From the sequence record NC_054920.1: a DNA stretch of 64,000 bases, one strand, 5' to 3'. How positions within the stretch are numbered: position 1 is the stretch's first letter; each line of letters begins with the position of its first letter. The translations under genes and the position numbers were made by a program. Below the pieces are notes generated by a model. That model did not search any database. It saw nothing but the letters and a program-made list of their open reading frames with translations, and was not told the origin of the DNA. This DNA comes from Escherichia phage vB_EcoM_G9062. Below are positions 29,171-29,996 of this stretch, in pieces.

Positions 29171-29996
29171 ATGGCTACTTATGATAAAAATCTTTTTGCT
29201 AAATTGGAAAACCGCACTGGTTATTCTCAGACCAATGAAACTGAAATACTAAATCCTTATGTAAATTTCAATCATTATAAAAACAGTCAAATATTAGCTG
29301 ATGTATTAGTAGCTGAAAGCATTCAAATGCGAGGTGTAGAATGCTATTATGTTCCAAGAGAGTATGTTTCCCCTGATTTGATATTTGGCGAAGACTTAAA
29401 AAATAAATTTACTAAAGCTTGGAAATTCGCTGCATATTTAAATTCATTTGAAGGATATGAAGGAGCTAAATCGTTCTTTAGTAACTTTGGTATGCAAGTA
29501 CAGGATGAAGTTACTTTGTCCATTAATCCAAACTTGTTTAAACACCAAGTTAATGGAAAAGAACCGAAAGAAGGCGATTTGATATATTTTCCTATGGATA
29601 ACAGCTTATTTGAAATTAACTGGGTTGAACCATATGATCCATTTTATCAATTAGGTCAAAACGCTATTCGTAAAATTACAGCAGGTAAATTCATTTATTC
29701 TGGAGATAGGTCAAAACGCTATTCGTAAAATTACAGCAGGTAAATTCATTTATTCTGGAGAAGAAATTAATCCAGTTCTACAGAAAAATGAAGGAATTAA
29801 CATTCCAGAATTTAGTGAATTAGAACTAAATCCTGTTCGCAATCTTAACGGTATTCATGATATTAATATTGATCAATATGCTGAAGTAGATCAAATTAAT
29901 TCTGAAGCTAAAGAATATGTTGAACCTTATGTTGTTGTCAATAACAGAGGCAAATCTTTTGAATCTAGCCCATTTGATAATGATTTCATGGATTAA
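29171..29996 (+). pseudogene. 14: Neck protein gene 14, frameshifted by a 55-bp tandem duplication (N-terminal frame terminates at 29728; native C-terminal frame continues to 29996)
   Basis: From ATG 29171 reads [27 protein letters not shown]... through ...AGKFIYSG, then the duplication shifts frame (DRSKRYS-stop); the downstream +1 frame encodes [26 protein letters not shown]...FMD-stop; deleting one copy restores a 256-codon ORF, the T4 gp14 length. Confidence 0.8.
29652..29761 (+). repeat. Perfect 55-bp direct tandem duplication (29652-29706 and 29707-29761) inside gene 14
   Basis: Both copies read TAGGTCAAAACGCTATTCGTAAAATTACAGCAGGTAAATTCATTTATTCTGGAGA; 55 is not a multiple of 3. Confidence 0.95.

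Follow-up and report, generated by a model that had tools for sequence, protein, structure and literature searches.

Is the frameshift in the neck gene of this T4-like phage a property of the phage or of its record? The question is raised by a 55-bp tandem duplication inside gene 14, which lies within the 64-kb stretch of DNA analysed here (the window) and appears to cut an essential gene short. We propose that the duplication is very probably a finishing artefact of de Bruijn-graph assembly, an end overlap of 55 bases that was left untrimmed, rather than a feature of the phage. The elements of the locus, all on the plus strand, are as follows.

28357 to 29169, plus strand: homing endonuclease gene of HNH type (270 aa), lying between genes 13 and 14 (phrog_655, E 2.7e-52; weak match to Pfam HNH_4)
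29171 to 29728, plus strand: gene 14 in the form present in the window, with 185 codons: native residues 1-178, then DRSKRYS and a stop
29652 to 29706, plus strand: copy 1 of the repeat, the 55-bp unit TAGGTCAAAACGCTATTCGTAAAATTACAGCAGGTAAATTCATTTATTCTGGAGA, in the native frame of gene 14 (TRF; string identity)
29707 to 29761, plus strand: copy 2, identical to copy 1 and abutting it (TRF; string identity)
29706/29707, plus strand: the novel junction, GGAGA/TAGGT, with the sequence TTTATTCTGGAGA/TAGGTCAAAACGC
29762 to 29996, plus strand: native 3′ part of gene 14 (...EEINPVLQ to FMD-stop), in the +1 frame

The duplication is perfect and sharply bounded. TRF returned 29652-29761 as one tandem array with a period of 55, 2.0 copies, 100% matches and 0 indels, and direct string comparison of 29652-29706 with 29707-29761 confirmed that the two 55-mers are identical and abutting, just as a preliminary description of this DNA had stated of two back-to-back copies inside gene 14. 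Scripted analysis of the boundaries showed that the 55-base periodicity extends by 0 bases to the left (T vs A) and by 0 bases to the right (T vs A), and that microhomology at the junction is zero, with no base common to either boundary. For periods of 15-400, the script found no other perfect tandem duplication in the 64-kb window, and a perfect 55-base repeat cannot have arisen by chance in 64 kb. Read as single-copy sequence, the locus would run from CCATTTTATCAAT through one 55-bp copy into AGAAATTAATCC.

As 55 is not divisible by 3, the reading frame of gene 14 appears shifted. The open reading frame that begins at ATG 29171 passes through copy 1 and stops at 29728, and the +1 frame, which encodes the native C-terminus (...FMD), is open from 29688 and runs to 29996. 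Deleting one copy yields a 256-aa open reading frame that matches the Pfam family T4_neck-protein (PF11649) over residues 4-250 with an E value of 1.3e-138, and whose product shares 255/256 residues with T4 gp14 chains from recent neck structures in the PDB (9mkb, 9lu4). The frameshift with its two endpoints, and the return of a single 256-codon gene 14 on removal of one copy, had both been put forward in the preliminary description; reading of the frames upholds the former, and the Pfam and T4 gp14 matches the latter. The exact truncated gp14 product is not on record in public assemblies.

Would such a lesion be tolerated? In T4, gene 14 is a head-completion gene that is needed for head-tail joining, and for this reason a plaque-forming isolate should not carry the lesion as its consensus. 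The 79 C-terminal codons that are lost contain, across 18 distinct alleles from the fetched loci, 17 variable codons with synonymous changes only vs 1 with an amino-acid change, a pattern which indicates that they are under strong purifying selection. Nor could the C-terminal fragment be made separately, since the open +1 frame contains no ATG, GTG or TTG before 29988, the ATG at 29988 being its only start; separate translation of the fragment was rejected on this ground. Relative to the common allele, no extra substitutions are present in either copy or in the out-of-frame 3′ part, so that the lesion, if real, would be extremely recent.

A precise search for the duplication in other genomes requires a query that responds to the junction itself. 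We used a 30-mer centred on the duplication junction, TTTATTCTGGAGATAGGTCAAAACGCTATT, which cannot seed on single-copy genomes, and found it in 0 of 50,697 GenBank phage records, whereas a control 30-mer of the same design placed across the wild-type boundary matched 411 of the 50,697. (A 70-base junction query was uninformative, because two half-matches of single-copy genomes were joined into one place.) A 39-mer spanning the junction likewise had no match in IMG/VR, in 241 million metagenome records or in GTDB genome contigs; its wild-type control was found in 3 IMG/VR contigs. Gene 14 as such is matched by about 500 GenBank phages with an identity of no less than 95%. Identity to the gene 14 of the window reaches 100% in at least 26 GenBank phages, and in all 26 the gene spans 774 bp, not 829 bp. 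Once de-duplicated, the gene is also 100% identical over 774 bp to six fetched loci.

The surroundings of the duplication are intact. The window belongs to a Tequatrovirus (T4-like) genome, as its 98-99% identity with T4-like phages shows. Positions 30001-55000 form a single ungapped alignment to Salmonella phage UAB_60 (99.2%) and Escherichia phage G4498 (99.0%), positions 4001-28347 align in one piece to Yersinia phage PYps35T (99.1%), and the 4 kb around the site share 98.8% identity with G2540-3, ESh30 and YUEEL01. Within these 4 kb the 55-bp insertion is the only large indel relative to the listed relatives, all of which aligned in two pieces with a span shorter by ~55 bp (3946 vs 4001 bp in the best five). 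The flanking ~49 kb showed no other disruptive indels relative to the relatives, and no record was 100% identical to the window regions that were aligned, the best GenBank relatives standing at 98.8-99.2%. By these alignments the assembly appears clean apart from the duplication, and in all other respects the genome resembles that of a viable phage.

Several further features of the genome came to light in these comparisons. The window is a mosaic of close relatives: its upstream baseplate region is nearest to PYps35T (99.1%), the 13/14 region is nearest to G2540-3, ESh30 and YUEEL01 (98.8%), and the downstream head and tail genes are nearest to UAB_60 (99.2%). The fibritin (wac) reading frame, 25954-27399 on the plus strand, encodes 481 aa vs 485 or 487 aa in the fetched relatives, and no exact match to it is recorded in public assemblies; the difference probably reflects ordinary variation in the coiled-coil repeats. 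In the gp12/wac region, DNA identity to most of the endonuclease-bearing loci falls to ~88-92%. The small terminase (gp16) is called at 159 aa in L024 (7380-7859) and L025 (7213-7692), two metagenome contigs with a gp13 identical to that of the window, vs 164 aa in the window (30865-31359) and in other relatives; one alignment gap in these two contigs lies just downstream of gene 15.

How might an assembler create such a structure? The value 55 is the final default k of SPAdes and metaSPAdes for short reads. T4-like genomes are circularly permuted, with the result that their reads assemble into a circle, and de Bruijn-graph assemblers output a circle as a linear contig in which the first and last k bases are identical. 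From the length and perfection of the repeat, the abutment of its copies, the lack of microhomology, its absence from the other public sequences searched and the intactness of its surroundings, we infer an assembler, a value of k and a rotation step that would together account for the locus. Reads from the circular phage genome would have been assembled by SPAdes or metaSPAdes into a linear contig carrying the same 55 bases at both ends, and the break between those ends would have fallen inside gene 14 by happenstance. The genome would then have been rotated and reopened, or its ends or two contigs joined, without removal of one copy of the overlap. This step would leave the two 55-mers next to each other within the record rather than at its ends, copy 1 presumably representing the 3′ end of the original contig and copy 2 its 5′ end, and gene 14 would seem frameshifted.

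Several elements of this scenario have counterparts in the data. The repeat has the length of the assembler's final k (55), and it consists of exactly two abutting copies that are 100% identical. It occupies an arbitrary position in an otherwise clean assembly, and zero microhomology at the junction is what an arbitrary contig break should produce. The genome also belongs to a type that assembles as a circle, Tequatrovirus, as illustrated by the circular contig of T4-like phage 132 (PMC8483715). Rotation of a circle may not even be needed: graphs built by metaSPAdes under default settings have a 55-bp overlap (PMC12133742), so that the end-to-end joining of two neighbouring contigs would give the same structure. 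An assembly artefact had been named as the first of three options in the preliminary description, and the length of 55, the two perfect copies, the lack of microhomology and the absence of the junction elsewhere now favour it.

The homing endonuclease gene that adjoins gene 14 deserves attention in its own right. Its reading frame is annotated as a homing endonuclease in relatives, and its start codon and the stop of gene 13 overlap (ATGA). An identical protein is encoded by T6, by G2540-3 and by at least 23 contigs. In many relatives, for example L014-L023, gene 13 is followed directly by gene 14, as in T4, and the endonuclease gene is thus polymorphic among T4-like phages; it is not linked to the duplication.

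If the duplication were genuine, it would represent a very recent event in the phage stock, either an amplification mutation or a defective genome, dominant or confined to a sub-population, that is sustained by wild-type co-infection. The replication and recombination of T4-type phages do generate tandem duplications, perfect copies free of secondary mutations would also fit a very recent event, and the length of 55 bp could be a coincidence. We nevertheless regard this reading as unlikely. The duplication would inactivate a head-completion gene, and a lethal allele is an improbable consensus for a plaque-purified phage; purifying selection acts on the last 79 residues, which are not separately translatable; the length coincides exactly with a default assembler k; and the junction occurs in no other sequence that was searched. 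Slippage or illegitimate recombination would ordinarily leave microhomology at the junction, and no short direct repeat is present at the duplication boundaries, a result that speaks against microhomology-mediated slippage. A more specific origin, a scar left by repair of a double-strand break made by the adjacent homing endonuclease, had seemed plausible in the preliminary description, given an HNH-type gene directly upstream (28357-29169) and the established ability of T4 homing endonucleases to cut some distance from their own genes. That suggestion did not survive comparison with other endonuclease-bearing loci. An intact 256-aa gene 14 adjoins the identical endonuclease in 10/10 listed independent contigs (GenBank, ENA, Logan), and gene 14 is likewise intact in both of the gp13-identical metagenome contigs that reach it. 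In total, the identical endonuclease or the same arrangement of gp13 and endonuclease occurs in 13 independent contigs; 12 have an intact gene 14, and the 13th ends before the gene. The lesion is therefore not associated with the presence of the endonuclease, and on this co-occurrence test, together with the absence of the junction from the collections searched, we reject a homing-endonuclease scar. The de-duplicated allele of gene 14 is moreover found both where the endonuclease is present (L010) and where it is missing (L016-L023), the duplication starts ~480 bp past the end of the endonuclease gene with no other conversion tract, and a scar of this kind would be lethal, all of which makes repair a highly improbable source.

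It is also conceivable that the duplication is real and that translation tolerates it, by ribosomal bypass from the GGA at 29702-29704 to the GGA at 29757-29759 or by a +1 shift within 29688-29728. Wild-type gp14 would result from a 55-nt hop between these matched codons, and gp14 with an insertion of ~18 residues from a +1 shift ahead of the stop at 29728; T4 gene 60, in which a 50-nt bypass accompanies a homing-endonuclease cassette, provides an established precedent. The matched take-off and landing codons are, however, a trivial outcome of any tandem duplication. The take-off GGA is followed by GAU and not by a stop, the first in-frame stop lying 8 codons further on; the predicted fold of the junction region is no more stable than that of shuffled sequence (z = -0.46), which leaves no stable take-off hairpin; no slippery or re-pairing +1 site is evident; and the gap is not conserved in related phages, the arrangement being found in no relative (0/50,697 phage records, against 411 with the uninterrupted sequence). 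With neither stop codon, hairpin nor conservation, a gene-60-like bypass or a +1 frameshift was rejected, and we assign recoding a very small probability. More broadly, that the duplication is physically present and is either crossed by hopping or shifting ribosomes, as a new analogue of gene 60, or kept in a defective genome by complementation, strikes us as very unlikely.

With assembly as the preferred source of the repeat, gene 14 of the phage itself is almost certainly normal. For the biology of the phage the duplication would then have no consequence, and its value is that of a curation flag: the record would annotate an essential neck gene as truncated or pseudogenised, and would give a genome length that is 55 bp too long. 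The same reasoning offers a simple and general way to screen deposited genomes of phages, plasmids and organelles for assembler overlaps that have been internalised: the targets would be perfect tandem duplications that lack junction microhomology and are exactly as long as a default assembler k (55, 77, 99, 127 or 141).

Comparison with known systems places the locus in context. The de-duplicated product resembles the T4 gp14 neck protein in its length of 256 aa and in 255/256 residues, whereas the window frame as written stops after 185 codons. With the T4 gene 60 bypass the locus shares an interruption of ~50 nt in an essential gene of T4 type, GGA on both sides and a homing endonuclease gene nearby; it differs in having no stop after the take-off codon, no take-off hairpin and no conservation, and in that its gap is a copy of the adjacent sequence. 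Closer parallels come from assembly. Repeats of ~79 bp in short-read Shovill/SPAdes assemblies of przondoviruses were shown by Sanger sequencing to be artefacts; they, too, were short exact repeats from a SPAdes-based phage assembly, and, lacking read-depth support, they were removed after validation (PMC10438801). In contrast to the duplication described here, they differ in length, occur in another family of phages and are located close to direct terminal repeats, not within an essential gene. The nearest counterpart is the T4-like phage 132, for which SPAdes 3.12 under default settings produced a contig with 55-bp overlapping ends that was taken as a circular genome; the overlap was trimmed, and the genome was then reopened (PMC8483715). 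One copy was thus removed in phage 132, whereas both are retained here, inside gene 14, and the assembler is in our case one that we infer. Otherwise the two correspond closely: both are Tequatrovirus genomes, the overlap is 55 bp long and perfectly identical in each, and a reopening step, to the T4 start in phage 132, is the point at which an overlap would either be trimmed or be carried into the finished sequence.
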